64,000 nt of DNA from Myxococcota bacterium (GTDB lineage: Bacteria; Myxococcota_A; Bradymonadia; UBA7976; UBA1532). Both the position numbers and the translations under genes were made by a program. Location of the stretch: positions 43,605-107,604 of the forward strand of contig JAKLJY010000004.1 in the NCBI GenBank assembly GCA_023150895.1, written 5' to 3'. This document shows positions 32 to 50,155 of this stretch, piece by piece. Numbering within the stretch: the first letter of the stretch is position 1; each line of letters opens with the position of its first letter. The notes beneath the pieces are model-generated. The model searched no databases and was not told where the DNA came from. It was given only the letters and a program-made list of their open reading frames with translations.

Positions 32-790
32 GTGCCGTGGACACTGACCATCGCCCCCGACACGCAGCACGTCCTCATCGACGTCCGCCCCGGCTTCACC
101 GAGGGCCTCGCGCTCTTCGGCCTCGCCGCCGCGGAGACCCGCATTGTCGAGCGGATCGTGCAGGTGTGTGCCCGGGACTTCGCCGGCCTCCGCGTCCACT
201 GCGGGACGACCCCGCCCCCGAACGTCCTGGAGTTCGTGACGGTCGAGCTCGGCGGTCAGGACCCCAACGGGCTCGGCCTCTTCGGGCTCGAGGCGTCGCC
301 CCGCAAGGACTCGGGGAACCGTCGCCTGGACGAGCGGATCGGCGGACACGACCCGGAAACCGACGCGCACGGCGGCGTGTTCGTCTCGTCGTTCCTCGCC
401 CTTTCGCCGGGTGCGAGCGCTCCGTCGACGCTCGCCGACCCCGCGTTCGACGACGTGTTCGCACCGTTCTCCCCCGCCCTGTCCGAAGACGCGCAGCCGT
501 ACGACCCCGAAACGGACCCGCCCGGCACGGAACGCGCAACCCGGGCGGACGGCGCCGTGCGAGCGCTCGGCGCCCTGGTCGGCAGTACCGTGACGCATGA
601 GCTCGGGCACGCCTTGGGGCTATCGGCGGCGTCGGACGCCGTGCACAATCCGGGGGACTGGCCGCTGGACCTGATGGATGCCGGCGAGCACCGGCCCTTC
701 GCCGAGCGTGCCGAACTCGGGGACCATCCCCCGGCCCGCTTCACCGGGCCCAACGCCGTCGCCCTCGCCCGCCTGCTCGGAGACCCGTGA
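32..790 (+). CDS. HExxH zinc-metallopeptidase-like protein; reading frame is open to the window start, so it may be 5'-partial
   Basis: The ORF has no in-frame stop back to position 2 and contains the motif HELGHALGL (HExxH). It is GC3-rich on this strand and is followed closely by the next gene (overlap 787-790). Confidence 0.5.
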   Translation: MPWTLTIAPDTQHVLIDVRPGFTEGLALFGLAAAETRIVERIVQVCARDFAGLRVHCGTTPPPNVLEFVTVELGGQDPNGLGLFGLEASPRKDSGNRRLDERIGGHDPETDAHGGVFVSSFLALSPGASAPSTLADPAFDDVFAPFSPALSEDAQPYDPETDPPGTERATRADGAVRALGALVGSTVTHELGHALGLSAASDAVHNPGDWPLDLMDAGEHRPFAERAELGDHPPARFTGPNAVALARLLGDP

Positions 791-1452
791 TGTCCGTCGT
801 GCCCCGCTGCCCGCCCGCCGCTCGTTTGGCCCTGGTCGTCGCCTGGGCCGTCCCCGGGCTCGCGGCTTGCGACGAGCCGACACGCGCCGGGCCGGTCGCA
901 CCGGTGACCGCCCCGGCCACCACGGCCCCGAGCGCCGCCTCGCGGCCCTGTGGGGACGACGCCGACTGCACCCGCCCGTGGCACCCTTCGATGGAAGGCT
1001 GCGGCAGCCTCGACCGCTGTTTCGATGGCACTTGTCTGCCGCCACCGGCCGCGACGGGCATTCCCAACGCCCAGACGGGCTCGCTGACCATCGAAACCCC
1101 CGCCGGTGAGCGCCGATATGCGGTGGAGGTTGCGGACGCACACTTCGAGACCCAACGCGGACTGATGTGCCGGACAAAGATGCGGCCGGACTGGGGCATG
1201 GTCTTCCTGCTCGACGAGACGCGGATCCAGTCCTTCTGGATGAAGAACACGCTGATCCCCCTCGACATGGTCTTCCTCACGGAGGACTGGACCATCGCGG
1301 GGGTCGTATCCGACGTGCCCCCGCGGACGCTCGAGCCGCGAGGCGTCCACACGCCGTCGCGATACGTACTCGAGCTCGTCGCAGGCGAAGCGCGTCGAGC
1401 GGGCCTGGCGGCCGGCCAACGCGCTCGTTTCTATCGGCCACGCGGCGAGTGA
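787..1452 (+). CDS. DUF192-family (COG1430-like) lipoprotein
   Basis: N-terminal lipoprotein signal (LAAC lipobox). The C-terminal region (AVEVADAHFETQRGLMCRTKMRPDWGMVFL...LDMVFL) matches the DUF192 pattern. GTG/ATG start overlaps the upstream stop. Confidence 0.55.
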   Translation: MMSVVPRCPPAARLALVVAWAVPGLAACDEPTRAGPVAPVTAPATTAPSAASRPCGDDADCTRPWHPSMEGCGSLDRCFDGTCLPPPAATGIPNAQTGSLTIETPAGERRYAVEVADAHFETQRGLMCRTKMRPDWGMVFLLDETRIQSFWMKNTLIPLDMVFLTEDWTIAGVVSDVPPRTLEPRGVHTPSRYVLELVAGEARRAGLAAGQRARFYRPRGE

Positions 1453-1484
1453 GCGCCGCTTCGACGCGCGCAGCCGACGACGGC

Positions 1485-1895
1485 TCAGCCGGCTTCGGAC
1501 GCCTTGCTCGACTCGACGAGTCGGCGAAACAGCGCCTCGCCGAGGTGCTCGACCATCAGCGCGTCGACGACGCGCTTGAGCGCGATCCGCTCCTGGTCGT
1601 CCTGAAACAGAAGTTCGACGCCCATCCCGGCTTCGACGCCGGGCGCCCCCGGGGAGACGACCCGCCGGACGACCCCCTTCAACGTGATCGGGGTCTCGAG
1701 CCGGGGGATGCTCAGCGTGAAGAGCGCCTCCGTGCCCGCCGGCAGGGGTTGGTCCGTTCGGACGAACAGACCGCCGCTGCTGATGTCCCGCGTGAAATCC
1801 GCGATGAACGCGTTGATGCGTTTGTATTCGACCTTGATCTCGATGGGCACGCGCGCCGACCGCCGTTGGTGAATGCCAGACATGCAACGGATCAT
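1485..1895 (-). CDS. PilZ-domain protein (putative c-di-GMP receptor)
   Basis: RxxxR motif (RRSAR) followed by DxSxxG (DISSGGLFV), diagnostic of PilZ. About 130 aa. Alternative start at the internal Met (about 1883). Confidence 0.6.
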   Translation of the reverse strand: MIRCMSGIHQRRSARVPIEIKVEYKRINAFIADFTRDISSGGLFVRTDQPLPAGTEALFTLSIPRLETPITLKGVVRRVVSPGAPGVEAGMGVELLFQDDQERIALKRVVDALMVEHLGEALFRRLVESSKASEAG

Positions 1896-1948
1896 GGCAC
1901 GTCACGTCCGATCGCGCCAAGGAATGCCGCGACGGCGCCGCGCGGGGC

Positions 1949-4177
1949 ATGCCGGTGAAGCGGATTCCCATCGCCCCGCTGCTGCTGCTCACCTGGAGCA
2001 CGGCGCTTTGTTTCATTCCCCTTCTGAACCTGCTCGCCTTCGAGTTCGCCGTCTTCACGACGCTCCCCGTGATGCTCGTCTCGGCGGGCCGCGGCATGCG
2101 GGCAGCGTCGGCGCACGGCTTCGTGCCCCATGCACGCGCGCTGCTCGGGACCCTCGGCCTGACGTTGCTGCCGCTCGGCCCCATCACCCTGAACGCACTC
2201 CGGGTCCAGAACTGCAACTTCACCGAGGGGCTGCTGTTCTATCTGCTTCTGCCCGGGGTGACGGCGCCGGTGGCGTACCTTTGGGGCTTCGCATGCGCGC
2301 GCCTGTCGCCGAACCGCCCACGCCTGGCTTTCGGCGCGGTCTTTGTGTTCTCCCTGCTCGCACCGCTGGGTTTCTTTGCTCTCGCGCCCCCGGTCGATGC
2401 GTTTCACTGGTTCGTGGGGTACTACCCGGGCTCGCTCTACGACGAGGTCATCCCACTCACGGGTCGACTGGTCGGCGCCCGCCTCGTCGACCTGAGCCTC
2501 GCGCTGGCGGCCGCGCTCGCTGCGGCGGGCCGGGGACGCGCTCGCCTCGTGGCGAGCGGGCTCGTCGCGGCAGGGCTCGCGGTCGGCGAACCCCTCGATC
2601 TGTATCGAACCTCGACCCATGTCCAGGCCGAGCTCGGTGGCCTCGCCGAGGCGCCGGGCTTCCGGATGCACTACCCCCGGGCGCTGCCCGCCGAGCGGGT
2701 GGCCGGGCTGATGACGGAACTGGCGTTCCGCCATGAAGAGCTCACGCAGTTCTTCGGGCGGGCGCCTGCGCTGCCCATCGAGGTCTGGTTCTACGCGGAC
2801 GTCCGCCAGAAGAAGCGCCTGATGGGGGCGGGCGCCGTGCGCATTGCCAAGCCGTGGCAGCGCGCGGTCCACCTTCAGGTGCCCGACATCGGTGACGGCA
2901 TCCTGGCGCACGAGCTCGCCCATGCGTTCTCCGCCGAGATCAGCGCCGCGCCGCACCATCTGAGCCTGACCCCCTGGGGGTTGCCGAACATGGGGCTGAT
3001 CGAGGGGGTCGCGGTCGCTGCGGCCTGGGATGACAGCCCGCTCGACGCGCATCAATGGACGATGGCCATGCGGCAGCTCGGCGTGGGCAAGGACCTACGC
3101 ACGCTCCTGAGCCCCCAGGGCTTCCTCACGGCCAACTCCCGGGCCGCGTACACGCAGTGTGGGTCCTACGTCCGCTGGCTCCGCGACACGGCCGGCACGA
3201 CGGCTGTCGAAGCGCTCTACCGACGAGGGACGCTCGAGGCCGTGTCGGACGAACGGTCCGATTCCGTCGCCGAGTGGCTCCGGTTCCTCGAAACCCGGAC
3301 GGTCGGTGACGCTGCGCTCGCCATTGCCCGGCTGCGGTTCGATCGACCCGCCATCTTCGGCAAGACCTGTGCCCACGAAATCGCCGCGCTCCGGGCGAAG
3401 CTCGACGACGTCTCGGGCGCCGATGTGCGCGAAGGGATCGAGCTCGTCGACGCCATCCTGGGGCACTTGCCGAACGACCCCGACGCGATGTTGACGCGCA
3501 TTGCCCTCCTCGCCCGCCGGGCGGCGGAGGATCCCACCGTAGCCGCGGAGACCCTCGAGGCGGCGGATGCGCTGGCCGCGCGACCGGACATCGGGCTCGT
3601 GCGGCGCGCCCGTGCCCGGGAGTGGCAAGCCGATCTGCGCGCGCGGCGTGGCACCCCCGCAGATGTCGCGCTGGCGCGGACCGTCTACGACGCCCTCGCC
3701 GGCGCACACTTCGACCGGGCCTGGACGCGACGCATCGCGGTCAAGCGCGCCGCGCTCGACGGTGGCTCATGGGGCCGCGCGGTGCTGGCTTTGCTCCTCG
3801 CGCCGGAGGATGCCGCCCCTTCGAGCGGCGACGCACGCCTCGACGAGGTGGTCGCCGCGGCGCCAGACCACCCGATCACCCACTATCTTCGAGGCCGACA
3901 GGCCGCACGCCGGGGCGAAACCGAAGCCGCGGTGGACCACAGCGTCGCGGCACTCGCCGCCGGGCTCCCGCACCCCGCGCTGACGTTCGAAGCGATGCGG
4001 CTGGTGGCGGCGACCCGCTTCCAGGCGGGGGACTACCGCGCCGCCGCCACCGCGTACGGCGACCTCGCCGCCCGCACCGATCTCGCCATCGAGGACGGCG
4101 AGCGTGCCGTGCTGGAGACCTGGGCGCGGCGTGCCCGCTTTTTCGCCGAGCACCCACCGGTCACGCCGGCAGATTGA
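1949..4177 (+). CDS. polytopic membrane protein with HExxH (MA-clan-like) metallopeptidase module and C-terminal TPR-like helical region
   Basis: About 7 predicted hydrophobic helices in the first 200 aa. Motif ILAHELAHAF with a downstream EGVA. C-terminal half is helical-repeat rich (TPR-like). ATG at 1949. Confidence 0.6.
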   Translation: MPVKRIPIAPLLLLTWSTALCFIPLLNLLAFEFAVFTTLPVMLVSAGRGMRAASAHGFVPHARALLGTLGLTLLPLGPITLNALRVQNCNFTEGLLFYLLLPGVTAPVAYLWGFACARLSPNRPRLAFGAVFVFSLLAPLGFFALAPPVDAFHWFVGYYPGSLYDEVIPLTGRLVGARLVDLSLALAAALAAAGRGRARLVASGLVAAGLAVGEPLDLYRTSTHVQAELGGLAEAPGFRMHYPRALPAERVAGLMTELAFRHEELTQFFGRAPALPIEVWFYADVRQKKRLMGAGAVRIAKPWQRAVHLQVPDIGDGILAHELAHAFSAEISAAPHHLSLTPWGLPNMGLIEGVAVAAAWDDSPLDAHQWTMAMRQLGVGKDLRTLLSPQGFLTANSRAAYTQCGSYVRWLRDTAGTTAVEALYRRGTLEAVSDERSDSVAEWLRFLETRTVGDAALAIARLRFDRPAIFGKTCAHEIAALRAKLDDVSGADVREGIELVDAILGHLPNDPDAMLTRIALLARRAAEDPTVAAETLEAADALAARPDIGLVRRARAREWQADLRARRGTPADVALARTVYDALAGAHFDRAWTRRIAVKRAALDGGSWGRAVLALLLAPEDAAPSSGDARLDEVVAAAPDHPITHYLRGRQAARRGETEAAVDHSVAALAAGLPHPALTFEAMRLVAATRFQAGDYRAAATAYGDLAARTDLAIEDGERAVLETWARRARFFAEHPPVTPAD

Positions 4178-4254
4178 CAGGGGGCAGGCGGTTGGGGAAT
4201 GCTCCCGCGTTCTCCGCCGGTTCGGCGGAGCAGAACGACCGCCCGGAGCCTCGG

Positions 4255-4743
4255 ATGCGCCTTCGCCGACTGATCCCCCTGTTCGCCGTTCCCCTGCTGT
4301 TCAGTCTCGCCGGCGCCGCCTGCGGCCCCCGCTACGTCACGGGCACGCAGGTCGAGTACTCCGACGAGCGCGAGGCGGTCGCCGCCGTCGTCGAGCGCTA
4401 TCGGGTGGCCCTGGAGCAGCGGGACGCCGATACCATCCGCAAGCTGACGAGCAAGTCGTACTACGAGAACGGCAGCACGACGGACGATCCCAACGACGAC
4501 TACGATGCGGCCGGGCTCGAAAAGGTCCTCGGCGCCCTCAAGGCCAACGTCAAGACGGTTCGCTACGCCATCGAGATCACGGCGATCGAGGTCGTCGAGA
4601 GCCTCGCCTCCGTCGACTACGACTACAAGGCCGAGTTCATGTACACGGTCGGCGAGCAGGACCGCTGGGGCACGACCAACGACAAGAACCGCATGACGCT
4701 TCGACTCGAAGACGGCCACTGGCGCATCTCGAGCGGCATGTGA
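4255..4743 (+). CDS. lipoprotein, SnoaL/DUF4440-like fold (hypothetical)
   Basis: Start chosen at MRLRRLIPLFAVPLLFSLAGAAC (lipobox). The longer upstream extension in the ORF track is an Arg/Pro-rich frame shadow. Ends with ...LEDGHWRISSG, typical of SnoaL-like proteins. Confidence 0.5.
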   Translation: MRLRRLIPLFAVPLLFSLAGAACGPRYVTGTQVEYSDEREAVAAVVERYRVALEQRDADTIRKLTSKSYYENGSTTDDPNDDYDAAGLEKVLGALKANVKTVRYAIEITAIEVVESLASVDYDYKAEFMYTVGEQDRWGTTNDKNRMTLRLEDGHWRISSGM

Positions 4744-4771: not shown

Positions 4772-7700
4772 CTAACGCAGGGCGCCGAGCAGCGCGTGGA
4801 AGCGGGTCCCGAACGCGTATCGATACACGTCCGCGACCTCTGCGTTGGCCTCCATGAGCGCGACGAACCCGTCGGCGCCTTTGACGCGGAGGGTCCGGAC
4901 GGCTTCGTCCTCGCGCTGGAGCAGCGCAACGGCGCGCCCGAGGTCACCCGTCAGGACGAAGGCCGTCCGGTTCGCGAGCTTCCGGGTGGCCTGCGCCCAG
5001 AGTTCGAACGCGCGGGGACCGAGAGCCGAGACGGGGCCCGCACAGGCCGACAGCGCCTCGATCACCGACGCGTCGAGGTTCTCGACGAGAAAGTCTGCCC
5101 AGAACTCGATCCGCTCCGCCTCGGCGCCCGTCCGGATCGCGTACTCGGGACCGTCCTCGCCGAGGGCGACGGCCATCGCGGCGGCAAAGAGCGCACGCGC
5201 GTCCTCCCAGCCGAGGCCGTTGAGCAGCAGGTGATGGTCGCGCATGCCCTCGAGTGCCCTCGCGAACTGAAATCGGAGGTCCCGCGGGTTCGTGCCCTGC
5301 AGAAGCCCGGCGTCGACGACGAGCTCGAGCGGGAAGAGCTGCATGGCCTCGACACGTTGCGTCGGGGCGGCCCGCACCCACAGCGGGCAGCGGGGCATCT
5401 CGAGGGCATCGCAGAGTCCGACGACGAGTTCGACGACGTGGGGCGCCTGAACCTGCGCCGGCTCGACGGGCTCGACCTGCCCCGAGAGCAACGCGTCGAG
5501 GGGCTCCCCGACCGCGGCCCAGAGCGTCCGGAGGAAGACGGCCGTCGCATTCTTCCACTCCGGCTCGGCGATCAGTTCGCCGCGCGTCACGGCGTCGAGG
5601 ACGAGGCCTTGCCGATCATCGAGGGGCCCGCCCAACGACCGGGCGAGCTCAGCCTCTTCGCGCGTCGCCTCGCGAATCAGGTTCAGCAGGCGGAGCGGGG
5701 TCACCGCCCAGTGGCTGCGGCCCGCGCCCCGATAGAGCGCCACCAGATCGCGCAACGACCCCGGCTCGGCCGGGACGGCGCGCAGGTACGCGGTGCGGTG
5801 CCTGATCGCGCGCTCGAAGTGGCGCGAATCGTCCGGATCCGCCACGGCCTGCGTGGCGAGCCGCCCGTAGAGTTCCGCGAGCTGCCGCTGGGCACCGAGG
5901 TGATCCGGCAGGATGGCGTGCAGCTCCTCGAAGACCTCGAGCGCACCGGCCGTGTCTCCCCGCGAGACGAGCGCGGCGCCGAGGGCTTCCAGCGCCGGCC
6001 CGCGCTCGCGGCCACCGACCCCGGTGATGCCTTGCCAGAGCGACCGAAGCACGACCGCCGCCGTGTCGGCCTCGTCCGGTGCAGGCGGGGCGGCCGCAAG
6101 CGTCGCCAACGCGCCACGCACCGCCAGGGCGTGCAAGGGCGAGAGTTCGACGGCCGACCGGAACGCGAGGTGGGCCTCGTCCGCGCGTCCCGCGCGCTGT
6201 TTCAAGTCCCCGACCGCACAGAAGAGGTCCGCCCGGGCGTTCGGATCGGTCTCACGGACCAGGAGCCGTTGGGCAATGCCGAGCGCCTGTTCCGACCGCT
6301 GCTGCTCTCGGAAGATCGGGAGCAGCCGGGTCAGGAGCGCGTGGTCGTCGAGACCCTCCTGCAGCGCCCGCTCATAGAAGCCGACCGCACGCGCCGGCTT
6401 GCCCAGGCGAGATTCGGCGACGATCCCGGCGGCCAGCCAGGCCATCGCTCGGATCCGGGGGTCGTCGGCGTCGGCGGCGATGCGCTCGCGCAGGCGGATG
6501 GAGGCCTCCCAGTGCCCGGCCCGCTCCTGGAGGTTCGCCAGGGCCTCGAGTGCGTCGATGCGGGTCGACGGCTCCTGCGCCGCGGCCTCGAAGGCGCGAA
6601 TCGCCCGCTCGACGTCGCCCGCCGCCGAGAAGCACCGGGCGCGTCGCATGGACTCGCGAGCCTTGTGAAGACCCGGATCGACACCGTCGGGTACCGGCGG
6701 CAGGCCGGCGAGTCTCGCGTAGACGGTCGCAGCCTCGCTGAGTTCGGCCTCGCGATAGAGCGTTTCGGCGAGCAGATGCCCGACGTCTTCGCGGTCGGGC
6801 AGCCGTCGCCACGCATCCCGCAACAGGGTCAGCGCAGACGTCTCATCCCCGCCTTCGAGGGACTGACGGGCCCGAAAGAGCTGGAGCTGCACCAGCAGCG
6901 GCGTTGCCCGGGCCACGACGGGATCCGGCCCGCCTCCGGGAATCGGCGGGGGCCGGTGATCGAGTCGCCCCTGCAGGCGGTCTGCCAGCGCCGCGATCGC
7001 CGACGCGTCCCCACGCGCGAGGGCCAGCGCCGCAAGCCCCTCCGTCGCCTCGAGTGATTTGGGATCCGCGACCAGCGCCTCGGCGAATCGGTTCTCGGCC
7101 GCCTGTGGATCCTGTCGTTTGTCCCGGTGGAGGACCGCCAGTTCACACAGCAGTGCCCCGCGCTCCACGGGCGACACCGTCGCCTGGATGCGCTGTACGA
7201 GCTGACTCGCCAGGAGATCCCAATCGCGTCGACGCGCCGCATACTCGCGGACCGCGGCCTCGGCCGAGTCGTCGTGGGGGTCGAGCGCGAGGAGCTGCTG
7301 CCAGAGGCCGATGGCGAGTTCGGGTGCGTTGAGCGTCTCGAGCGCTCGGGCCCCCTTGCCGAGCAGCCCGAGCACCTGCATGGGCGTCGCGGCAGACCGG
7401 ACCTGTGCCTGAATCGCCGCCAGGAGCGACTCCGGCGCCTGCGCCCGGATCGCAACGGACTCGAGGCGGCTGAGGACGGCGGCGTCCCCGGGACAGGACT
7501 CGATGGCCGTTCGAAGCGTCTCCATCGCGGCCGCCAGGTCGCCTTGCCGCTCGGCCTGGACGTCGGACAACCGAAGCGCCCAGGCGGACGCGGCGGCTGC
7601 ATCGGTCATGTCCGGACCAGCCTCGATCGGCGGCCCGTGGCGCACGAGCAAGGCGACGACGTCCGTCCAGCGCTTCTCCGCGGCCGCCAGTTCGAGGACC

Positions 7701-10700
7701 TCCCGGGCGACGGCGACGTCCCCCGGACGGAGTTCCAGGGCGCGGGCCAACCAGCCACGCGCCTTCTTCCGGTTCTGAAAGCGGTCGCGGGCCACGCGAC
7801 CGGCGAGCAGCAGGAGCTCGAGTTCGCTCTCCCCCGCAGCGGCCCCGAGCGCGCGCTCGGCCGCGACCAGGAGTTCTTCGTGCTCGGCGTTGCCGTCCGC
7901 GAGCGCGGCCATCTCGCGGACGATGTCGATGGCTTCGTCCGGCGGAACGTCCAGCGCGAGCCGCGACAGCACGCGAAACGCTTCGCGGGGCTGATCGCGT
8001 CGGGTCCGCAACAGTTCGGCCTTGCGCCGGAGCACCGCGCCCCGTGCTTCGATGGGGAGGACACGGGCTCGTGCATCGAGCGCCTCGATGATCCCGGCGA
8101 CGTCATCTCTGGCCTCGAGGAGCTCGACGAGGAGTTCGTGCGCAGTGGCGTCCGATGGCCGCAGGGTCAGGATGCGGGCGCAGACCTGCTCGGCCTTTCG
8201 GGGGGCCGCCATCGGCGTGCGGTAGACCACGGCGAGCTCATGCATCACTGCGATGCGGGCGTCTTCGAGCCCGCGAACGGCGCGCAGCTCGAGGTGCGCG
8301 GCGAGCGCCTCCCAGTCCTCCGTCTGCCGCAGGAGCCGGGCGAGCGAGGTGGACGCGAGCTCGTCGTTGGGCTCGAGCTCGACGACATGGCGAAGGATCC
8401 GGGCCGCCCCCGCGTGATCACCGTTTTCCCCCAGGAGCGTCGACGCTTCGCGATAGAGCCTCAGGCGGGCATGGGGATCGTCCGACCACCCCGCCTCCTC
8501 TTCGAAAGCGGCGGCGAGTTCCTGCCAGCGACCGAGTTCACCGGCCAGGCGCCGCATGGCCGCGTGCGTCGTCTCGTTCCAGGTCTCGAGCGAAAACGCT
8601 CGGCGCAGGGTCTCCATCGCCTTCTCGGGCTGGCCGAGTTTCCGCTCCTGAATGCGGGCGACGTCGTGCAGCAGACTGATCTTGAGCCAGGTCTCCTCTG
8701 CGTCCCGGACCTTGAGTTCGAAGACCCGGATGATGAGGGCCCATGCCCCGTGGGCCTCGGCCAGGCGCCACGCCTCGGCGCGCGTGGTCTCGTCCTCCGG
8801 ATCGAGCTGAAGCGCGATGACGTACTGCTCGAAGGCACGTTCCCAATCACCGCAGCGCGTCTCGAGCAGCCGCGCGAGCTCGTGGATCGTCGCGAGGCGC
8901 GCCGTGAGCTGCGTCTGCTTCTGCCATCGCTCGCGGTACTGCTCCGTCAGCGCGTCCCAGTAGCCGTGCGTCTCGGCCATCCGCACCAGCTCGGGCAGCA
9001 CCGCGCCTTCGGACGCGCCGGACTTCAACGCCGCGGCATAGGTCTCGAATGCGCGCTCGGGGTCGGCGAGGTGACGCTCCAGGATGGCGGCGGACCGCAG
9101 CAGCAGCGCCGCCCGCACCTCGCGATCAATCACCCCGCGCATGAGCAGCGCGCACGCATCGAGGACTTCGGACCACGCGCCGCCTGCCTCACAGACGCGC
9201 ACGTACTCGTCGAAGACCCGTCCCTCGCGGGGCGCGATTTCGAACGCGGCCTTGAGCAGCTCGCGGGCCTTCTCGGGCGATCGCAGGCGCTCTTCGGCCA
9301 CGCGGCTCTGCTGAACGAGAACTTCGATCTGCTCCTCGCGGGTCGTCGCCCGTTGCCGCGCGACCTCGAGGACGCGGATGTAGCGATCCCAGAGCCCGGC
9401 GGCTTCGGCGAGCCGGCCCATTTCGCGCACCATCTCGGGATCGGCGTCGCCCGTCAGCTTGAAGGCCCGCCACCAGCACTCGAACGCCTCGGCGAGGTCG
9501 CGTCGATGCGTCTCGATGAGACGCGCGGCGTCGACGAGGCGCTCGATCCGTTCGTCGTCGTCCTCCGCGCGATCGAGCAGCGCGCGCAGGATCCGCACCA
9601 GATCCGCCGGTCGGTCGAGATCGGCATAAAGCGTCCGCAAAGCCATGAGCGCGTCGAGATCGGCCGGGGCGGCCGCGACGACCCGCTCCCAGACCACTGC
9701 GGCGTTGGCCTGCTCCCCGAGGCCCTCGTCGAGCCGGCGCGCGAGCGTCTTCTCGAGGTCGATGCGCTCCGGGCCGGGGGACACGAGCTGAAGCTCCGCC
9801 TCCAGGACACGGCACAGCGTCCAGTCGTCCTGGCGCAGACCGGCGAGGCGCCGCATCTCCTCCAGCGTCTCGCGGTCGTTCGGGAAGTCCTGATTGACCA
9901 GCCGCAGGGCGTCGAGCGCCGCCGACAGCTCACCGGCCGCCTCGTAGGCCCGGGCCTGCCGCTCGCGAAGGCTGCGGGCCTCGATGGGGTTGCGGGCGAG
10001 CGAGGCGAGGATCCCGAGCTGCGTCGCCGCGACCATGCGGTCTTGCAGCCGCTCCGCCTGACGCACCGCCCCGGTCGCCGCCTCCACGTCCGTCGGGGCG
10101 AAACGCTGAACCCGAAGCCACGCCTCGAGCGCGATCGCGGCGTCGCCGCCGTCCACCAGACGGGCCACCTGCTGTGCCAGCCCGAACGCCTCTCCCGCCT
10201 CCATGCCCGGCAGGCGACGCTCGGCGAGCGGGACGAACTCGGTCCACCGCTCGTCGGTCTCGTAGAGCCGCAACCGCTCGTCCATGACCTCCGGGTCGTC
10301 CGGAAGCACCTCGGCGATGCGTTCCCAGCACGTCGTGGCCCGCTGCGTATCGCCGAGCCGCAGCTCGATCTGCACGGCGGCTTCTCGCAGCAATGCGACG
10401 CGAACCTCCGGTGCGGTCGCGGCCGCGACGCGCCGCTCGATGACGGCGATCTGCGCTTCGTGCTCCTGCCGACTCGCGTAGATGCCCTGAAGGTACCGCA
10501 GCGCCTCGTCGTCGTCCGGGACCCGTTCGAGGACGGCATCCCAGTCGGCGATGGCAGCATCGAGATCGGCGCCGGCCCGCGTCCGCTCGAGGGCCCGCTC
10601 GCGGAGGAAAGGAACGGCCTCGAGCGCACCGGAGCGCGCGGCCCGGACCCCGAGCGCCTCGATGAGGTCCGCCGAACGAGCCTGCGCACGCAGCAGTACG

Positions 10701-13306
10701 AGGAGCGCATCGATCGGCGCCGGCTCCGTCGGGCGAAGCCTTGCAAGCCGGCGCAGCGCCACTTCCTCCAGATCGGATGCCGCCGGCGGCTCCGACGCGA
10801 CCGCCAGGAGCTCTTCGGCCCGCCGCGCTGCGTCCGGGTGCCCGTCGTCGACGTCTGCGAGTTCCTGCGCCAGGAGCGCCCGCTCGCCGGCGCGGTCGCC
10901 CGCGGTCCGGTACATACGCCGCAGCGCGTCCCGGGCATCGGGGTTGCGCGTCGCCGACCAGAGGCGATGCACGTAGGCCGCGGCCCCCACCACGTCGCCG
11001 AGTCGAGCCTCGGTCAGGGCGGCGAGGTCGACCCAGAGCTCGTGGAGGCGGTCGGTCTCGACTTCCCGCTCGCAGGCGGCGGCCGCGGCGTCGAGGACTG
11101 CCCTGAGCTCTCCCCATGCCTCGGCCCGCGTCAGCCGGTCCCGCATCCACGGCAGCGACACCGGATCGGCGGGTCGGTCGGCGAGCAGCGTCCGGTGGCA
11201 GTCCGCGGCCGATTCGACGTCGCCGAGGGCCCGCTCGTAAAGAAGCGCGAGTTCGCGCAGCGCCGCGTCGTGGTCGAGCTCCGGCAGGGGGGCCATCTGA
11301 CCCGCGGCAATCCGCGCGAGCACTTCGGCGAGCGGGAGCGGGTCGTGGGCAGCGCGGGCGGCGAGGACGAGCGCGCGGCAGACCTCCGCGTCCTGGGGGG
11401 CGAGGGCGGCCGCCGTGCGCAGGAGGTCGCGGGCACGGACGGGCCGCGCAAGAACGCCCGCTTCGAGGGCCGCGGCCCGTCGCAGCGCCGCGACTCGGAC
11501 CGGCGCAGAAAACGGACGGGTCGCCGCGCCGGCCAGCCACGCGGCCAAGTGTTCCGTCGCGCCGGGACCGGCTTCGGCTTCCAGCCGTTCGGTGACCCGG
11601 ACGAACAGCGCCTCGTCGTCCGGGGCGAGCTCGGACGCTTCCCGAAGAAGCGACAGACCCGCTTCCGTCTCGCCCCGAAGCTCCATGAGCAGCGCCGCGA
11701 GCTCCGTCAGCAGCCGCGCGGCCTCGGTCGCGCCTTCGCCCGCGGCGCGGGTTCGAAGACGGTCCGCGATCTCGGCGAAGCTGGTATCGTCACGAACGAG
11801 ATCCCTCAGGAGAGCCATCGCCGCGTCCGCCCCTCCCTCGGCGAGCGCGGCGCGCACGGACTCGTAGGCGCCGCAGGCATCACCGAGGTTGCGGTGTCGC
11901 ACTCGGCCCTGCTCGATCAGGAGCCGTCTCCGGATGGCGGCCTCGTCGGCGACCCGCACCTGCAGACCGAGGAGGCGGTCGACCATGGGCCAGTCTTCGC
12001 GGCGACGGTAGAGACGCTCGCCGGCCGCCATGTAGCGCATCTCGCGGGGCTGCAGCTTGAAAGCCTGCAGGAAGCGCTGCATCGCCCCCTCGAGGTCGTC
12101 GAGGTGCGTTTCGAGAATCTCCCCGGCGCGGAAGAGGTGCTCCGCACGGGGCGCGTCATCGACCGCCAGCGCGGCCTCGCCGTCGTGGACGTTGACGAGC
12201 GCCCGCCACAAGCCGAGGCGGCCGAAGTCGTCGATCATCGCCTCGGCGGCGCCCGCCACGCCCTCGGCGCCGACCCGGCGCATCCCCGCTGCGAACGCCG
12301 TCGGATCGCCCCCCTGCTCCTGCAGGCCGCGCCGGTAGAGTTCGAAGGCCCGCGCCGGATCCAGCAGTCGATACTCGGCCTGCTCCGCGAGGCGCAGCAG
12401 AAGCCCTGGTCGCTCACGCGCCGCGGCGACGTCGAGGCGAACGATCAAGACCTCGTGGACACGTTCGGGCTGACCGAGACGCTCGAAGATCTGCTCGAGC
12501 GTTGCGGACACGTCCGCGACGTGACCCCAGCGGGCGAGGGTCGCGTCGAGACGCGCCTCCACGGCGGCGGCGAGGCCCGGATCGAGGACGAGCGCCTCGT
12601 AGGCGTGCACCGCGGCTTCGAGCGGCATGCCTGCGCGGTCGCCGCAGAGCGTCGAGGCGTCGAGGAGGAGGCGGGCCTTCGCGCCGAGATCGCGCACGTG
12701 CGCCGCGCCCCGCGTCAACACGTGCACCGCCTCGAGCGGGCGGCCCGCCAGGACCTCCAGCCGGGCGGCCGCGGTGATCGCTTCGACGTCGTCGGGCGCG
12801 TGGGTCAGGTGCAGGTGCAGTTGCTCGAGGACCGCTTCGCACTGCGCCCGCTGCGCGTCGTGTGCCGCCGCGAGCAGGTAGGCGCGGGCGAGCTCGGGAT
12901 CGGCGAGGCGGGTTCGCGTGAGCTCGGCCGCCTCGAGAAAGAGGCCCGTCCGTTCACCGGGATCGGGCATGACCTCGGCCTGCTTCACCAGCACCGTGAC
13001 GACGTCGACCCAGCGCTCGGCCACGGACAGCGCCGCGACGAAGTGGGAGACGATGGTGGCGTCTCCATGTTCGCGCGCCAACGCCGCGAGGCGCGTGAGC
13101 GCCCCCTGGGAGGCCCCCGGTGCCTGACGCGCCGATTCGGCGTAGTGCCGCGACGCGGTCTGGGGATCACCGAGGTGATCCCGAAACACGTCGCCGATCT
13201 CGAGCAGCTTCGCGGCCTTCGCCGCCGGGTCACCGATACGGTCGACCTCGGCGAGCAGCACGCCTGCGACCTGCCGCCAACGCCCGCTCTCGCCGGTGGA
13301 AGCCAT
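4772..13306 (-). CDS. giant cytoplasmic TPR-like repeat protein (2844 aa), paralog of the AgmK/GltI-like gene at 34712..46423
   Basis: Single 8.5-kb ORF with strong GC3 bias on the minus strand. Quasi-periodic helical repeats (..AxxxYxxALxxDPxxxxALxxL..LYxxxxxWxxLxxV..). No signal peptide. Its C-terminal about 250 aa (..ANRTAFVLTGDLGRAVALLQ..YRYAFGTRFHALLGALR) aligns with the C-terminus of the 3903-aa protein. Monocistronic and divergent from 13392(+). Confidence 0.85.
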   Translation of the reverse strand: MASTGESGRWRQVAGVLLAEVDRIGDPAAKAAKLLEIGDVFRDHLGDPQTASRHYAESARQAPGASQGALTRLAALAREHGDATIVSHFVAALSVAERWVDVVTVLVKQAEVMPDPGERTGLFLEAAELTRTRLADPELARAYLLAAAHDAQRAQCEAVLEQLHLHLTHAPDDVEAITAAARLEVLAGRPLEAVHVLTRGAAHVRDLGAKARLLLDASTLCGDRAGMPLEAAVHAYEALVLDPGLAAAVEARLDATLARWGHVADVSATLEQIFERLGQPERVHEVLIVRLDVAAARERPGLLLRLAEQAEYRLLDPARAFELYRRGLQEQGGDPTAFAAGMRRVGAEGVAGAAEAMIDDFGRLGLWRALVNVHDGEAALAVDDAPRAEHLFRAGEILETHLDDLEGAMQRFLQAFKLQPREMRYMAAGERLYRRREDWPMVDRLLGLQVRVADEAAIRRRLLIEQGRVRHRNLGDACGAYESVRAALAEGGADAAMALLRDLVRDDTSFAEIADRLRTRAAGEGATEAARLLTELAALLMELRGETEAGLSLLREASELAPDDEALFVRVTERLEAEAGPGATEHLAAWLAGAATRPFSAPVRVAALRRAAALEAGVLARPVRARDLLRTAAALAPQDAEVCRALVLAARAAHDPLPLAEVLARIAAGQMAPLPELDHDAALRELALLYERALGDVESAADCHRTLLADRPADPVSLPWMRDRLTRAEAWGELRAVLDAAAAACEREVETDRLHELWVDLAALTEARLGDVVGAAAYVHRLWSATRNPDARDALRRMYRTAGDRAGERALLAQELADVDDGHPDAARRAEELLAVASEPPAASDLEEVALRRLARLRPTEPAPIDALLVLLRAQARSADLIEALGVRAARSGALEAVPFLRERALERTRAGADLDAAIADWDAVLERVPDDDEALRYLQGIYASRQEHEAQIAVIERRVAAATAPEVRVALLREAAVQIELRLGDTQRATTCWERIAEVLPDDPEVMDERLRLYETDERWTEFVPLAERRLPGMEAGEAFGLAQQVARLVDGGDAAIALEAWLRVQRFAPTDVEAATGAVRQAERLQDRMVAATQLGILASLARNPIEARSLRERQARAYEAAGELSAALDALRLVNQDFPNDRETLEEMRRLAGLRQDDWTLCRVLEAELQLVSPGPERIDLEKTLARRLDEGLGEQANAAVVWERVVAAAPADLDALMALRTLYADLDRPADLVRILRALLDRAEDDDERIERLVDAARLIETHRRDLAEAFECWWRAFKLTGDADPEMVREMGRLAEAAGLWDRYIRVLEVARQRATTREEQIEVLVQQSRVAEERLRSPEKARELLKAAFEIAPREGRVFDEYVRVCEAGGAWSEVLDACALLMRGVIDREVRAALLLRSAAILERHLADPERAFETYAAALKSGASEGAVLPELVRMAETHGYWDALTEQYRERWQKQTQLTARLATIHELARLLETRCGDWERAFEQYVIALQLDPEDETTRAEAWRLAEAHGAWALIIRVFELKVRDAEETWLKISLLHDVARIQERKLGQPEKAMETLRRAFSLETWNETTHAAMRRLAGELGRWQELAAAFEEEAGWSDDPHARLRLYREASTLLGENGDHAGAARILRHVVELEPNDELASTSLARLLRQTEDWEALAAHLELRAVRGLEDARIAVMHELAVVYRTPMAAPRKAEQVCARILTLRPSDATAHELLVELLEARDDVAGIIEALDARARVLPIEARGAVLRRKAELLRTRRDQPREAFRVLSRLALDVPPDEAIDIVREMAALADGNAEHEELLVAAERALGAAAGESELELLLLAGRVARDRFQNRKKARGWLARALELRPGDVAVAREVLELAAAEKRWTDVVALLVRHGPPIEAGPDMTDAAAASAWALRLSDVQAERQGDLAAAMETLRTAIESCPGDAAVLSRLESVAIRAQAPESLLAAIQAQVRSAATPMQVLGLLGKGARALETLNAPELAIGLWQQLLALDPHDDSAEAAVREYAARRRDWDLLASQLVQRIQATVSPVERGALLCELAVLHRDKRQDPQAAENRFAEALVADPKSLEATEGLAALALARGDASAIAALADRLQGRLDHRPPPIPGGGPDPVVARATPLLVQLQLFRARQSLEGGDETSALTLLRDAWRRLPDREDVGHLLAETLYREAELSEAATVYARLAGLPPVPDGVDPGLHKARESMRRARCFSAAGDVERAIRAFEAAAQEPSTRIDALEALANLQERAGHWEASIRLRERIAADADDPRIRAMAWLAAGIVAESRLGKPARAVGFYERALQEGLDDHALLTRLLPIFREQQRSEQALGIAQRLLVRETDPNARADLFCAVGDLKQRAGRADEAHLAFRSAVELSPLHALAVRGALATLAAAPPAPDEADTAAVVLRSLWQGITGVGGRERGPALEALGAALVSRGDTAGALEVFEELHAILPDHLGAQRQLAELYGRLATQAVADPDDSRHFERAIRHRTAYLRAVPAEPGSLRDLVALYRGAGRSHWAVTPLRLLNLIREATREEAELARSLGGPLDDRQGLVLDAVTRGELIAEPEWKNATAVFLRTLWAAVGEPLDALLSGQVEPVEPAQVQAPHVVELVVGLCDALEMPRCPLWVRAAPTQRVEAMQLFPLELVVDAGLLQGTNPRDLRFQFARALEGMRDHHLLLNGLGWEDARALFAAAMAVALGEDGPEYAIRTGAEAERIEFWADFLVENLDASVIEALSACAGPVSALGPRAFELWAQATRKLANRTAFVLTGDLGRAVALLQREDEAVRTLRVKGADGFVALMEANAEVADVYRYAFGTRFHALLGALR

Positions 13307-13391
13307 GGGGCGGTAATGTAAACGCGGTGCACGCCGGGGGCTGCAAGAAAATGGTGGAAACGCGGGGCCCGCCGGCTACCCTGCGACCCGC

Positions 13392-15839
13392 ATGGTCCGC
13401 CCGCCGCCGCTGCGCCTCGCCGCCCTCCGCCGGCCGCCCGCCCGCGGGTGTGCCGCCCTCGGCCTGTGGTTCTCGGTCGGCCTCGCGGGCTGCGGCGCGG
13501 GCCCGGCCCAATCGGGCGCCGCCGTGCACCCGGAGCCGGCCTCGAGCCCTGCTCGCTCGCGCAGCGTCGCGCACGCGTCCCACCTGGTCGACCTGACGGA
13601 GCGCCCCGGGGCGGCGATGGCGACCGTCCTGGTGGGCCTGCCCACGCGACCGGCGGACCGGGTCGAGGCCCGAGCGCGTCTTTCGGCCCTGCGGCCACGT
13701 CTCGCGAAGGCCCTGGCAGACGCGCGCCCCCGGGTCGAGACCGACAGCATCGGCGGGGTCCCCGTCCTGCGGCTCGAAGTTTCGATGCGGGCCTACGAGG
13801 CGGCCCTGGACGCGCTCGTGGCGACCTTCGACGACGCGACGCCCCCCTCGGCGGACGCGTCCCCGATGGCCACGCTCCCTGGAGACGCGCTCGATGCGCT
13901 GTCGTCCTCCGGCGGTTCGGCCGGCCGCCCGGCCATCGTCATCGTCCGCGGCCCGCTGCCCCCGGATCGGACCGCCCGCGAAGCAAAGGCGCTCGACGCG
14001 CTCGGAGCGCGGTTCGCCGGTGGCGAGCGCACCGCTGCGCCGTCGCCTTCGCCGCCACCCGGACCCGCCGTCCGGGTCCTTCGCCGCGGGGGTGGCGCGG
14101 CCCACCTCGCGCTCGCCGTCCGCCTGCCGGGTGGCGCCCGGACGCCCGACGCCGACCTGCTCGCCGCCCTGCTCTCCGGTGGACCCGAGTCGCGCCTCGA
14201 ACGCGCCGTCACCAGTGCCGGCCTCGAAGGCGCTTTCCCCGCCGCGGGCTTGCGGCCCGGACCCGGAGGGGCCGAACTCATCCTCGGTCTGACGCTGCGA
14301 CCCGACGACACGGAAACGGGCTGGCGCCTGCTGGCGGCCGTGCGGCGCGGACTCGGCGACAGCCCGCCGACGTCGGCGGAAGTCGCCCGAGCCCGCGCGC
14401 ACCTGGCCGACCGGGACGCGTTCGCCCGCGGAACGACGAGCGCGCTCGCGCACCATCGCGCCGCCCGCCTCTTCCGGACCGACGATGCCCTCCCGGACGA
14501 GGCCGAGTTCGCCGTGCAGCTCGATGCGGTCACGACCGGCGCACTCGGCCGCCTCGCCGCCGAAGTCGCCACGGCGGCCGTCCGCGGTGTCCTCGTGACC
14601 CCCGCGGTGGAGGCCTCCGTCGACGACGACCTCTGGGCCGAGTCGCTCGCCCTCGCCGCGCGGGCCGAAGCCCCCGCCGTGCTGTCCGCACCGGAGGTGC
14701 GACCGGGCGTCTTCCGGCTCTCCGAGGGTCTGTCGGCCGTCGTCCTCGTGCGCCCCGGCGACACCCTCGTCGCTTTTGCCGTGCGACTCGAAGGTGGCGC
14801 GAGCGTCGAGCCACCGGAGTTTCCCGGCGTCGGAGTGCTGTCGGCGGCGGTCGCCGGCCGTGCCGCCGAGCACGGCGCCTTCGAAATCGACGGTCGTTAC
14901 GAGCGCGACGCCGTCGTTCTGACGGTCACGGCGCCCGCCGAGCGCGTCTCCGAAGCCATCGAGCTGCTCGCCCGTCGCCTCTCCCGTTTTCCGCAGCGTG
15001 CGGATGTCCTGGAGTCTGCGCGCACCCGGCTCATCGCCAGGCGGGCCAACCGCCAGTCCGACCCCCTCGCGCTCGCCTTCGCACTCGCCGAACAGGGTTT
15101 CTCCGATCCACGGCTCGGCCGGGACCTGCTCGGCACGCCGGACGGACTCGCCGACCGGACCCCGATCGAGGTCCGCAGCTTCCTCGAGGCGCGGGTGGCC
15201 GGGCGACCGGCGACCGTGACCGTCGTCGGTCCCGTCGACCCGGCGCGCGTGCTGCCCATGATTCGCTCCGCGTTCAGCCCGCTCGCCGCCGAGGCGCCCG
15301 TGAGCGATGCCCCGTCCTCGGTCCCCGCACCGGCGCGGCTCGAGCGCCGTGTCGAGGCTGACCGGACCTGCGTCGCGGCGGCCTTCGCGCTCCCGCCGGC
15401 GACGGCCCGTGAAGAGGGTCCGGACGCCGCAGCCGAGGTGCTCGCGACCCTGCTCGCGCCCGCCCGACGCCTCTTCGGCCCCTCGGGCCCTGCCCTCGCC
15501 GTGGCCCGGTGTGCGGACGACGTTGCCGCCGCGCGGATTGCCCTGGCGACGGACGTCGGGCGCCTCGCGACGTCGGGTCCGACGCCGCCCGCCCTCGCCG
15601 CGGCACGCGAGACCGCCGCCGCGGAGTTCGCCCGGGTCGCAGACCCCCCCGCAGGCCTCGCGGTGCGCATTTCCGAGGCCGTTGCACGGGGACGCTCGGC
15701 GGCCGATCACGACCCCGTGGCACGGGCGGCCGATCGCCTCGAGGCCGTCACACCGACCGAAGTGCGTGCGCTCGCCAGCGCGCTGCCCCCCCTCGATGCG
15801 GCCGTCACGGGCGTCGCGGGACCAACCCCTTCGCCCTGA
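13392..15839 (+). CDS. lipoprotein with M16 (pitrilysin)-like two-domain architecture lacking the HxxEH motif (probable non-catalytic M16 homolog)
   Basis: Lipobox (LAGCGAG). Ala/Arg-rich two-lobed sequence resembling M16 inactive domains. No HxxEH zinc motif seen. Confidence 0.5.
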   Translation: MVRPPPLRLAALRRPPARGCAALGLWFSVGLAGCGAGPAQSGAAVHPEPASSPARSRSVAHASHLVDLTERPGAAMATVLVGLPTRPADRVEARARLSALRPRLAKALADARPRVETDSIGGVPVLRLEVSMRAYEAALDALVATFDDATPPSADASPMATLPGDALDALSSSGGSAGRPAIVIVRGPLPPDRTAREAKALDALGARFAGGERTAAPSPSPPPGPAVRVLRRGGGAAHLALAVRLPGGARTPDADLLAALLSGGPESRLERAVTSAGLEGAFPAAGLRPGPGGAELILGLTLRPDDTETGWRLLAAVRRGLGDSPPTSAEVARARAHLADRDAFARGTTSALAHHRAARLFRTDDALPDEAEFAVQLDAVTTGALGRLAAEVATAAVRGVLVTPAVEASVDDDLWAESLALAARAEAPAVLSAPEVRPGVFRLSEGLSAVVLVRPGDTLVAFAVRLEGGASVEPPEFPGVGVLSAAVAGRAAEHGAFEIDGRYERDAVVLTVTAPAERVSEAIELLARRLSRFPQRADVLESARTRLIARRANRQSDPLALAFALAEQGFSDPRLGRDLLGTPDGLADRTPIEVRSFLEARVAGRPATVTVVGPVDPARVLPMIRSAFSPLAAEAPVSDAPSSVPAPARLERRVEADRTCVAAAFALPPATAREEGPDAAAEVLATLLAPARRLFGPSGPALAVARCADDVAAARIALATDVGRLATSGPTPPALAAARETAAAEFARVADPPAGLAVRISEAVARGRSAADHDPVARAADRLEAVTPTEVRALASALPPLDAAVTGVAGPTPSP

Positions 15840-28006: not shown

Positions 28007-28100
28007 GGACGCCTCCACGGCATGGCGCCGCGGGCGGCATCGTAGCAGGGCGACGCGGCGCTGGGAACCGACCGGGGCATCCTGTGTTAGAGTCCGCCCC

Positions 28101-34710: not shown

Positions 34711-34711
34711 C

Positions 34712-46423: not shown

Positions 46424-46579
46424 CAAAGTCGCCTTTTTCCGGACGTCGCTGGATGGTCGTGGCGCTGCCACGATGATCGAATGAACCTGCACCGTTCGCC
46501 CGCCCCCGGGGGCCGAGCGCGACTCTTATAGCATCGGGCGCCCGGGCCGACAACGACCACGGGCCGGCCGGCGCGGGAC

Positions 46580-47452: not shown

Positions 47453-47925
47453 CGACGACCTCCGACCTTCGGGCATTCGCCGGTTCTGGTAACAGAGGGG
47501 ATCGCTCAGGTCAAGCGAGGGGTGCGGGCGACCGGCGTTTCGAGTCGGAAGCCCCGCTTCCATGTTCTGCAAGGTGACTGGCGACCGAATCGTCTACCGA
47601 CGCTCGCGCCGGAAACCTGTCGCCCCGGCGGCCGCCAGCGCTTGCCGCGCGCATCGGACGCGCGCATCCGGTCGGTCGTCCCCCCCTCCGTCGCGCGCCG
47701 TTGCGAACGGAATGACGCTCGCTCGACCGTTGCAGGCGCACCGCCGTCGTCTCGACGCCAGTTGGGCGGCGGTTGTGGCGAAACGCCCCGCGCGGCGGGC
47801 CGCGGCCGGGGCGAAACAGCCACTGGACTGAAGACGGGAGCGCGAAACCGGTGGGATCGAGGGAACGACCGTGCGCCAGAAACAGGCGCGACGTCAGCCT
47901 GTGAAGGGAGCGGGAGACCGGAGGA

Positions 47926-49746: not shown

Positions 49747-49754
49747 GGGCTCTC

Positions 49755-50039: not shown

Positions 50040-50155
50040 GCAGAACTCCTTTCGGACGGCGGACACGCCGGCCGAGATGATAGCCGCGTTTGACGGAGGT
50101 GGAAAGCTCGCTCAACGGGTGAGACACGGGCCCGAGAGCGAAGTTCCCGAGAAAA

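Follow-up and report, generated by a model that had tools for sequence, protein, structure and literature searches.

A giant TPR protein outside the glt-like cluster of an uncultured Myxococcota bacterium is a probable ancient paralog of the GltI-like giant, with a C-terminal domain that looks like an inactive M48-type protease

To our knowledge, no large component of the myxobacterial focal-adhesion motor is less well understood than GltI/AgmK, and we know of no function assigned to its C-terminal domain. In M. xanthus, GltI is a giant cytoplasmic protein whose TPR solenoid leads into a large, helical domain at the C-terminus (PMC11761067). Here we analysed a stretch of 64,000 nucleotides (the window) from an uncultured Myxococcota bacterium, an organism known only from metagenome assemblies. 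The window contains two genes for TPR-solenoid giants, A and B, which lie 21 kb apart in one genome (Table 1). Gene B is the last gene of a glt-like cluster, in which the NCBIfam AgmX/PglI C-terminal domain is also recognised (114 bits); its length of 3903 aa in a previous reading made from the sequence alone (the sequence-only reading) is that from the in-frame ATG. Gene A lies outside this cluster. The analysis agrees with the sequence-only reading that the window encodes two such giants, one inside and one outside a gliding-like cluster, and the two are true paralogs with a common architecture.

Table 1. Features of the gene A and gene B loci (window coordinates)
Feature	Position	Strand	Basis or remark
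Gene A, 2844-aa giant TPR protein, predicted cytoplasmic, paralog of the GltI/AgmK-like giant	4772..13306	(-)	ORF intact
TPR solenoid of A, residues about 10-2460	5927..13279	(-)	72-residue autocorrelation peak, repeat HMMs, Pfam TPR
C-terminal domain of A, residues about 2545-2844	4775..5674	(-)	Homologous to that of the GltI-like giant; predicted M48-peptidase-like fold without HExxH
Three-stranded sheet and following helix of A, residues 2642-2687	5246..5383	(-)	Model secondary structure; columns P185, F205
Most conserved domain motif, W-x9-(A/S)NRxGFVLxGDLxxA, residues 2770-2799	4910..4999	(-)	Invariant or nearly invariant columns
Divergent 815-aa M16-like protein, putative lipoprotein signal	13392..15839	(+)	Pfam Peptidase_M16_C; LAGC lipobox-like N-terminus
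Conserved downstream block	787..4743	mixed	Four genes
DUF4440-like lipoprotein, 162 aa	4255-4743	(+)	Converges on the 3′ end of A
742-aa membrane protein	1949-4177	(+)	Roughly 760 aa across loci
PilZ protein	1485-1901	(-)	
DUF192 lipoprotein	787-1452	(+)	
Gene B, GltI/AgmK-like giant	34712..46492	(-)	3926 aa from GTG; 3903 aa from in-frame ATG at 46423
C-terminal domain of B	34715..35542	(-)	Homologous to that of A
glt-like (G1-type) cluster upstream of B	46580..56204	(-)	NCBIfam, Pfam
GltC-like protein	54639-56204	(-)	NCBIfam GltC 418 bits
TPR protein in GltD position	51415-54651	(-)	
GltE-like protein	50156-51418	(-)	NCBIfam GltE 157 bits
Small signal-peptide ORF in GltF position	49755-50066	(-)	
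GltG-like FHA and TonB_C protein	47926-49746	(-)	NCBIfam GltG 403 bits; Pfam FHA, TonB_C
TPR protein	46580-47572	(-)	Member of the glt-like cluster

Gene A is present exactly as the sequence-only reading described it, an 8.5-kb open reading frame of 2844 codons for amino acids that starts with ATG and runs uninterrupted. Its GC3 is 0.86, and an identical gene call was found on a Logan contig. The orthologs are full-length and share 43-84% identity with it, and dN/dS is 0.10 against the ortholog in contig L002 and 0.22 against that in L001, which holds for the TPR and C-terminal parts alike; gene A is thus under purifying selection (dN/dS 0.1-0.2). The intact frame and the low dN/dS ruled out a pseudogene. 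The 162-aa gene converges on the 3′ end of gene A and the 815-aa gene diverges from its 5′ end across a gap of 85 bp; since both neighbours are oppositely oriented, gene A is monocistronic, which bears out the corresponding claim of the sequence-only reading. A consensus scan of the 3′ end of gene A, uninformative at 72% G+C, returned no promoter or terminator. The product has no signal peptide, no membrane segment, and not one 19-residue hydrophobic window, showing it to be cytoplasmic as far as sequence can tell.

The solenoids of the two giants are built from the same repeat. Autocorrelation gave 72 residues as the strongest lag in A and B alike, and a repeat HMM built from B alone scored A at 193.7 bits, compared with at most 12 bits for all other window proteins tested, including the four TPR proteins of the glt-like cluster; the "same repeat style" noticed earlier is therefore real. 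In A, the consensus of this double-TPR unit is WdELvavLe....dpeaRaaLLlelArllEtrLgDperAfevlrrA. The B-derived HMM found 19 units in A, and an HMM refined on A gave 30 hits, or about 27-30 recognisable copies; B has 45. Several Pfam TPR families also matched A above their cut-offs, namely TPR_14 (53.8 bits), TPR_2 (39.3), TPR_11 (34.5), TPR_6 (34.5), TPR_8 (32.7), and TPR_1 (31.0).

The relationship extends to the C-termini. BLASTP of the full-length proteins gave an E value of 2e-41, and composition-adjusted BLASTP of the last 350 residues gave 1e-4, with 24% identity over 151 residues. Smith-Waterman alignment restricted to the domain, without the terminal TPR, scored 69 compared with 31.5 ± 4.7 for shuffled sequences (z = 8.1; Gumbel p 1.5e-5), and not one shuffle out of 2000 scored as high. 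When the domain profiles of the A and B families were compared with hhalign, the probability was 99.0% and the E value 2.7e-18 over 321 aligned columns. In addition, four sequences (P0029, P0032, P0033, and P0035) bridge the two families: they match the A and B domains from end to end, with E values of 1e-8 to 1e-29. The claim that the C-termini align, put forward with sequence strings that occur in both proteins, is upheld by these four lines of evidence, which place the alignment well clear of the E > 0.01 at which the sequence-only reading was prepared to abandon it. The homology stands but the proposed length of about 250 aa does not, as the domain spans about 300 aa. Both proteins are helical and rich in Ala, Leu, Arg, and Glu, and their pairwise identity is low, as would be expected if the resemblance were an artefact of composition or helical repeats and A merely another TPR protein. 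However, the composition correction, the shuffles, the profile alignment, and the bridging sequences all contradict this explanation, as do the sheet-plus-helix order common to both domain models and the specificity of the repeat HMM to A and B; we regard it as refuted, with a negligible chance of being right.

The A family comprises proteins of 2783-3034 aa and was found only in uncultured Myxococcota/Bradymonadia assemblies. It was visible only by exhaustive HMMER search: among 1.84 billion proteins, 28 representative clusters had E ≤ 1e-3, 14 of them below 1e-26. By contrast, a word-indexed search with the A C-terminus returned a single fragment, 98% identical, and one with an alignment of five A orthologs again returned just one 98%-identical fragment; the B C-terminus gave seven matches, mostly fragmentary. 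In a neighbour-joining tree, the A clade stands apart from the B clade, with intermediate lineages in between. The same C-terminal domain occurs in at least three other lineages, all outside glt clusters. P0029 (2285 aa) and P0033 (1949 aa) are giant TPR proteins. In P0008 (491 aa), which is encoded on a 26-kb contig next to genes for VWA and OmpA proteins, just a short N-terminal stretch precedes the domain. We used P0008 as evidence for a stand-alone domain and left out P0035 (354 aa, on a 1.3-kb contig), which is probably a fragment. The C-terminal domain thus defines a wider family with at least five lineages, the majority of which are encoded away from gliding clusters. The C-terminal domains of A and B are only about 17-18% identical. 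This low identity, the depth of the A family, which has its own synteny, and the further lineages indicate that GltI is one member of the wider family and not the parent of A. The suggestion of a duplicated AgmK lineage consequently fails if a recent or lineage-specific duplication is meant; by its sequence relationships, the A family is a separate, deeply branching one, an ancient paralog of the GltI-like giant rather than a recent duplicate.

Two independent models of the C-terminal domain were of high confidence (pLDDT 90.9 and 92.0), and in them the domain has the appearance of an M48-type protease that has lost its catalytic function. The element at residues 2642-2687 carries two invariant columns, a Pro and a Phe (P185 and F205 in the numbering of the 370-aa query), together with a conserved RFxLARxLELxR helix, and would correspond to the edge strand and active-site helix of zincins; the match to the HExxH helix was drawn from the order of the elements, not from a residue-level alignment. 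The most conserved motif lies further downstream, with W296, R306, and D314 invariant or nearly so in 20-23 sequences of the A and B families. This motif is the one quoted in the sequence-only reading. The link to M48 is a purely structural one, because sequence searches gave no tie: a search of PDB sequences with the domain profile returned TPR matches only, within the first 65 or so profile positions, and hhalign against E. coli BepA gave a probability of 0.6%. Pfam and NCBIfam offered no family for the domain and no peptidase family, even at E values up to 10, and a Foldseek search of the PDB with the domain model gave no significant match. Were the domain an active protease, A would be a TPR-guided peptidase in the style of BepA. 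We rejected this reading because HExxH is absent: neither HExxH nor HxxEH occurs in any of the 23 domain-family members, the alignment has no conserved His, Glu, or Cys column (the invariant or near-invariant residues are Pro, Phe, Trp, Arg, Asp, Ala, and Leu), and Pfam Peptidase_M48 does not match. Protease activity is accordingly very improbable.

The A family has a conserved neighbourhood of its own, which recurs in eight related contigs (L001-L005 and L009-L011), making nine with the window. A is flanked by the divergent M16-like gene on one side and on the other by the genes for the DUF4440-like lipoprotein, the membrane protein, in most cases PilZ, and the DUF192 lipoprotein, in that order; PrmA is also found in the flanks. 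The M16-like gene holds the same position in L001, L002, L005, L010, and L011, and L009 has an unannotated 842-aa gene there. The DUF4440-like lipoprotein and the membrane protein adjoin every A-family giant examined, the DUF192 lipoprotein is kept in all A loci whose flank reaches that far, and PilZ is encoded in seven of the nine contigs, missing from L010 and L011. A gene for an MshEN-domain protein lies 5 kb away. Since the neighbourhood also includes the housekeeping genes PrmA, RsmE, and UbiA, its conservation may stem from slow rearrangement and not from function. Among the neighbours of the A-family genes in the nine contigs, no glt family was seen; in particular, no gltD-E-F-G run lies upstream, so that A is without the context of a G1 glt cluster.

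This separate neighbourhood argues against a pair of alternative gliding scaffolds, a possibility raised in the sequence-only reading, in which A would replace or supplement the GltI-like protein in the same Agl-Glt machine, for example under different conditions. The two giants share a repeat subtype and a C-terminal domain, their genes are 21 kb apart in one genome, and the single FHA protein of the glt-like cluster could in principle bind either scaffold. Against this, the two domains have diverged widely, no glt family is seen near A, P0029 and P0033 show the same architecture and are likewise outside glt clusters, and A has roughly 27-30 units to the 45 of B; we consider a shared machine unlikely.

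The neighbours themselves suggest another role, that of platform for a distinct, undescribed envelope-spanning assembly made up of the M16-like, DUF4440-like, and DUF192 lipoproteins and the membrane protein of roughly 760 aa, with PilZ as the c-di-GMP receptor that regulates it. The block stands beside A in every long-enough locus, even where identity in the C-terminal domain has fallen to 33-35%, and its products have lipobox-like or transmembrane N-termini; the frequency of PilZ, the nearby MshEN-domain gene, and the analogy to GltI with its partners in the envelope (PMC11761067) point the same way. However, the case is one of guilt by association, the block is interspersed with housekeeping genes, PilZ is not universal, and A is transcribed apart from all the block genes. 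Such an assembly is possible, though we would not expect it. Somewhat less likely again is its fuller form, in which the A family would be the platform of a second envelope machine of this uncultured Myxococcota/Bradymonadia clade, built with the M16-like and DUF4440-like lipoproteins and the membrane protein, tuned by c-di-GMP through PilZ, and docking an extended peptide of a membrane partner in the M48-derived pseudoprotease.

The reading we favour, and think probable, is that A is a cytoplasmic scaffold made of a solenoid and an M48-like pseudoprotease, an ancient paralog of GltI that acts in parallel to it in a separate process. About 2,460 residues of double-TPR units would form a super-helical scaffold, and the end domain of roughly 300 residues would have descended from, or converged on, the M48 fold and lost the metal-binding HExxH. 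Like GltI, A would provide a long platform on whose solenoid several copies of partner proteins come together, and the pseudoprotease domain would hold an extended peptide of a partner in its vestigial substrate groove, thereby anchoring one end. The process served would be other than that of the linked Glt machine, and may involve the envelope proteins and PilZ encoded always or nearly always beside A.

The breadth of the family, the conserved giant lineage of A with its own synteny, and the dead-M48 appearance of the domain all bear on GltI, which could be recast as one recruited representative of a general class of cytoplasmic scaffolds consisting of a TPR solenoid and a pseudoprotease. They also raise the concrete question of whether the vestigial substrate groove binds peptides. 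If true, a second machine with a pseudoprotease that docks peptides would for the first time offer a mechanistic way into the C-terminal domain of GltI, which is uncharacterised. As the organism is uncultured, the immediate value of these results is comparative and structural rather than genetic.

Compared with known systems, the domain of A differs from the M48 zinc metallopeptidases (BepA/YfgC, 6sar; Geobacter Q74D82, 3c37; Ste24p/ZMPSTE24) in that it has no HExxH, no conserved metal ligand, and no sequence-level similarity to them, and Foldseek scores against M48 structures fall below significance. These peptidases are periplasmic or membrane-bound, whereas A is predicted to be cytoplasmic, and the TPRs of BepA follow the protease domain whereas those of A precede it. 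P0029, P0033, and P0008 have the C-terminal domain of A, matched over its full length, but differ from A in length and context and branch between the A and B clades. Relative to the GltI-like protein B, A is about 1,000 residues shorter, lacks a Pro/Ala/Glu-rich tandem-repeat insert, and belongs to a separate clade. The closest described counterpart is GltI/AgmK of Myxococcus xanthus (MXAN_4863), whose likeness to A runs through B, the bearer of the same 72-residue repeat subtype and C-terminal domain: like A, it joins a giant cytoplasmic TPR solenoid to a large helical C-terminal domain.

The gene for the giant TPR protein A (2844 aa) has the GC3 expected of a real gene (0.86, in surrounding DNA of 70–75% G+C), and an independent 17-kb assembly carries a gene call whose product is identical to A. 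On its 5′ side A faces a divergent 815-aa gene across 85 bp, and on its 3′ side a convergent 162-aa gene; A is therefore monocistronic by orientation, as the sequence-only reading had it. A scan of the whole protein revealed no hydrophobic window of 19 residues and no signal peptide; thus, A is predicted to be cytoplasmic. Relative to orthologs of 84% and 72% identity, its dN/dS was 0.10 and 0.22, respectively (rough values, with dS near saturation), and was alike in the TPR and C-terminal parts; selection thus maintains the gene. Antisense to A and to B, the GltI/AgmK-like giant of the window, run very long ORFs (753–2107 aa) in DNA of ~70% G+C. Two of them pass a simple GC3 filter, and such ORFs are easy to mis-annotate; these ORFs overlap A and B, and shadow ORFs are the best interpretation of them.

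Full-length BLASTP aligned A with B at an E value of 2e-41. The strongest autocorrelation lag was 72 residues in both proteins, with a second peak at 144. A repeat HMM built from B alone detected 45 units in B and 19 in A (domain E < 0.01), the latter often spaced by exactly 72 residues, and it scored A at 193.7 bits versus ≤12 bits for every other window protein tested, including all four TPR proteins encoded in the glt-like cluster. Since only A, besides B, scores high, the repeat is a special subtype rather than generic TPR, which bears out the earlier impression of a common repeat style. After refinement on A, the HMM gave 30 hits, equivalent to 27–30 units, over residues 10–2460. These alignments indicate that A and B are related along their whole length.

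The two giants had also been said to share a C-terminal domain, and this claim held: composition-adjusted BLASTP of their last 350 residues gave an E value of 1e-4, below the 0.01 beyond which the sequence-only reading would have counted as refuted. Given that the first ~65 positions of the 370-aa segment are the last canonical TPR, the shared domain proper is ~300 aa. With this terminal TPR removed, the Smith-Waterman score was 69 versus 31.5 ± 4.7 for 2000 shuffles (z = 8.1), none of which scored as high, and when a profile of the 15 A-family sequences was aligned with one of the 7 B-family sequences, the probability was 99.0% and the E value 2.7e-18 over 321 columns. Among database proteins, several have full-length matches to the domains of both A and B, P0029 being one, with E values of 4e-29 to B and 2e-13 to A. 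The domain matched no Pfam or NCBIfam family. Its invariant or near-invariant residues are Ala73, Pro185, Phe205, Trp296, Arg306, Asp314, and three Leu; HExxH or HxxEH occurs in no family member, and the family has no conserved His, Glu, or Cys column.

AlphaFold2 models of the A and B C-termini, built on small alignments, were confident, with pLDDT values of 90.9 and 92.0, respectively, and a pTM of 0.90 each. The elements run in the same order in the two models: first helices, next a small three-stranded sheet, then a long helix with the conserved RFxLARxLELxR motif, and last a helical bundle ending with a W...NRxGFVLxGDL motif. Structure-comparison alignments span 144–167 residues, with minigluzincins and BlaR1 lower in the ranking. 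Foldseek against the PDB gave no significant hit, and no sequence-level signal to the M48 zinc metallopeptidases was detected from the domain. On these grounds we read the domain, with moderate confidence, as an M48-like pseudoprotease, in which the RFxLARxLELxR helix would, by element order, be the former active-site helix. As far as we found, this reading is apparently new and is not mentioned in the GltI literature consulted.

An exhaustive HMMER search with the A C-terminus against 1.84 billion representative proteins returned just 28 clusters at E ≤ 1e-3, with full-length members of 2783–3034 aa, all from metagenome assemblies and named at most as generic TPR proteins. Four orthologs (84, 72, 43, and 43% identity) were found in the genome collection, in assemblies labelled Bradymonadia (Lake Mendota), 'uncultured Myxococcales' (Loclat), 'bacterium', and 'Myxococcales'. 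A is a GltI-type giant outside the glt cluster, from an unnamed family so far restricted to uncultured Myxococcota/Bradymonadia. On a neighbour-joining tree of the domain, the A and B clades are separate, and P0033 (1949 aa), P0029 (2285 aa), P0032/P0035, and P0008 branch between them, so the domain defines a wider family of which the GltI type is one branch. The giant genes for P0029 and P0033 are both complete, and neither lies in a glt cluster. In P0008, a short, partly coiled N-terminal stretch precedes the domain and the giant TPR array is missing, which shows that the domain can be separated from the array as a module. Downstream of P0033, and so beside a giant with a pseudoprotease-like domain, lies a protease-family TPR protein.

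Coordinates of the features discussed (window positions unless a locus is named)
Feature	Coordinates	Strand	Remark
PilZ gene	1485-1901		
A	4772-13306	-	uninterrupted ORF, 2844 codons, ATG start
Antisense ORF	4796-7057	+	overlaps real gene
Antisense ORF	7127-13321	+	2064 aa; overlaps real gene
MshEN + HEAT protein	18665-22018	+	5 kb from A
Sigma-54 activator response regulator	26621-28258	-	between A and B
PD40/TolB-like beta-propeller protein	27960-31031	+	1023 aa; between A and B
rsmI	33835-34830		listed ORF
Antisense ORF	34430-40753	+	overlaps real gene
B	34712-46492	-	3926 aa from GTG; 3903 aa from ATG at 46423
Antisense ORF	40880-46531	+	overlaps real gene
36-bp tandem repeat	45521-45674		inside B; 4.3 copies, 97% match
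glt-like cluster upstream of B	46580-56204		
P0008	L006 10001-11476 (GCA_009612915.1)		complete 491-aa gene; adjoins VWA(-like) and OmpA genes
MshEN + receiver + TPR protein	L007 6632-8095		same strand as P0029, two genes upstream
DUF4175-like protein; TPR protein with Peptidase_MA_2	L013 9848-14528		downstream of P0033, same strand

B is the final gene of a glt-like cluster that encodes a GltC-like protein (NCBIfam, 418 bits), a GltE-like lipoprotein (157 bits), and a GltG-like protein (403 bits) that also has FHA and TonB_C domains and an AgmX/PglI C-terminal domain scoring above cut-off (114 bits). A 1078-aa TPR protein occupies the GltD position and a small signal-peptide ORF that of gltF. 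All Glt equivalog scores fall below the curated NCBIfam cut-offs, which marks the system as diverged. It is also rearranged: the GltC-like gene lies directly upstream of the GltD-position gene, whereas gltC of M. xanthus is in the separate G2 cluster, and gltJ is absent after B, where the next gene is rsmI. The listed rsmI ORF overlaps the B 3′ end by 118 nt (34712-34830); rsmI thus probably begins downstream of the listed start. An ATG 23 codons into the B ORF (MNERVRELF..., 46423-46492 region) may be the true start instead of GTG, and the length of 3903 aa given earlier matches a count from this ATG. Between TPR units 3 and 4 of B lies a Pro/Ala/Glu/Val-rich insert, (PAAEPVVEAASE)n, the product of the 36-bp tandem repeat; A has no counterpart of this insert, which may be a disordered linker or hypervariable site.

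The neighbourhood of A is kept in every locus long enough (the window, L001-L005, and L009-L011), including loci at 33–43% identity. On one side, a divergent M16-like gene is followed by prmA, in many cases rsmE and an RDD gene, the gene of an MshEN/HEAT protein, and ubiA; on the other are a ~160-aa DUF4440-like gene, a 740–790-aa gene, PilZ (absent in L010 and L011), and DUF192. The M16-like, DUF4440-like, and DUF192 proteins begin with lipobox-like sequences, and hydrophobic segments occur near the N-terminus of the 742-aa neighbour. This block could be a functional unit, or it may merely be stable, as housekeeping genes are among its members. No glt families were seen among the neighbours in these loci. 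That A is a second scaffold of the same gliding machine is disfavoured by this independent gene context and by the deep divergence between A and B. MshEN is a c-di-GMP-binding module, and MshEN-domain proteins lie near two different giants of the family, A and P0029; together with the PilZ gene they hint at c-di-GMP control, which may be coincidence. Tricorn/PD40 proteins, one of which is encoded between A and B, also occur near the giants in L007 and L010.

Collectively, the sequence comparisons show A to be a full-length paralog of the GltI-like giant that is under selection and predicted to be cytoplasmic, that belongs to a family and synteny of its own, and whose C-terminal domain is non-catalytic. 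The partner system of this paralog would not be the linked Glt machine and may be the conserved block of envelope proteins with PilZ, and its putative pseudoprotease domain would probably grip an extended peptide of a partner. Drawn from sequence and models of an uncultured organism, the result recasts the origin of GltI, and the M48-like reading offers a testable idea for the GltI C-terminal domain. In GltI, several GltG-FHA sites are predicted along the solenoid (PMC11761067), and on that model A would likewise act as a long multivalent platform.
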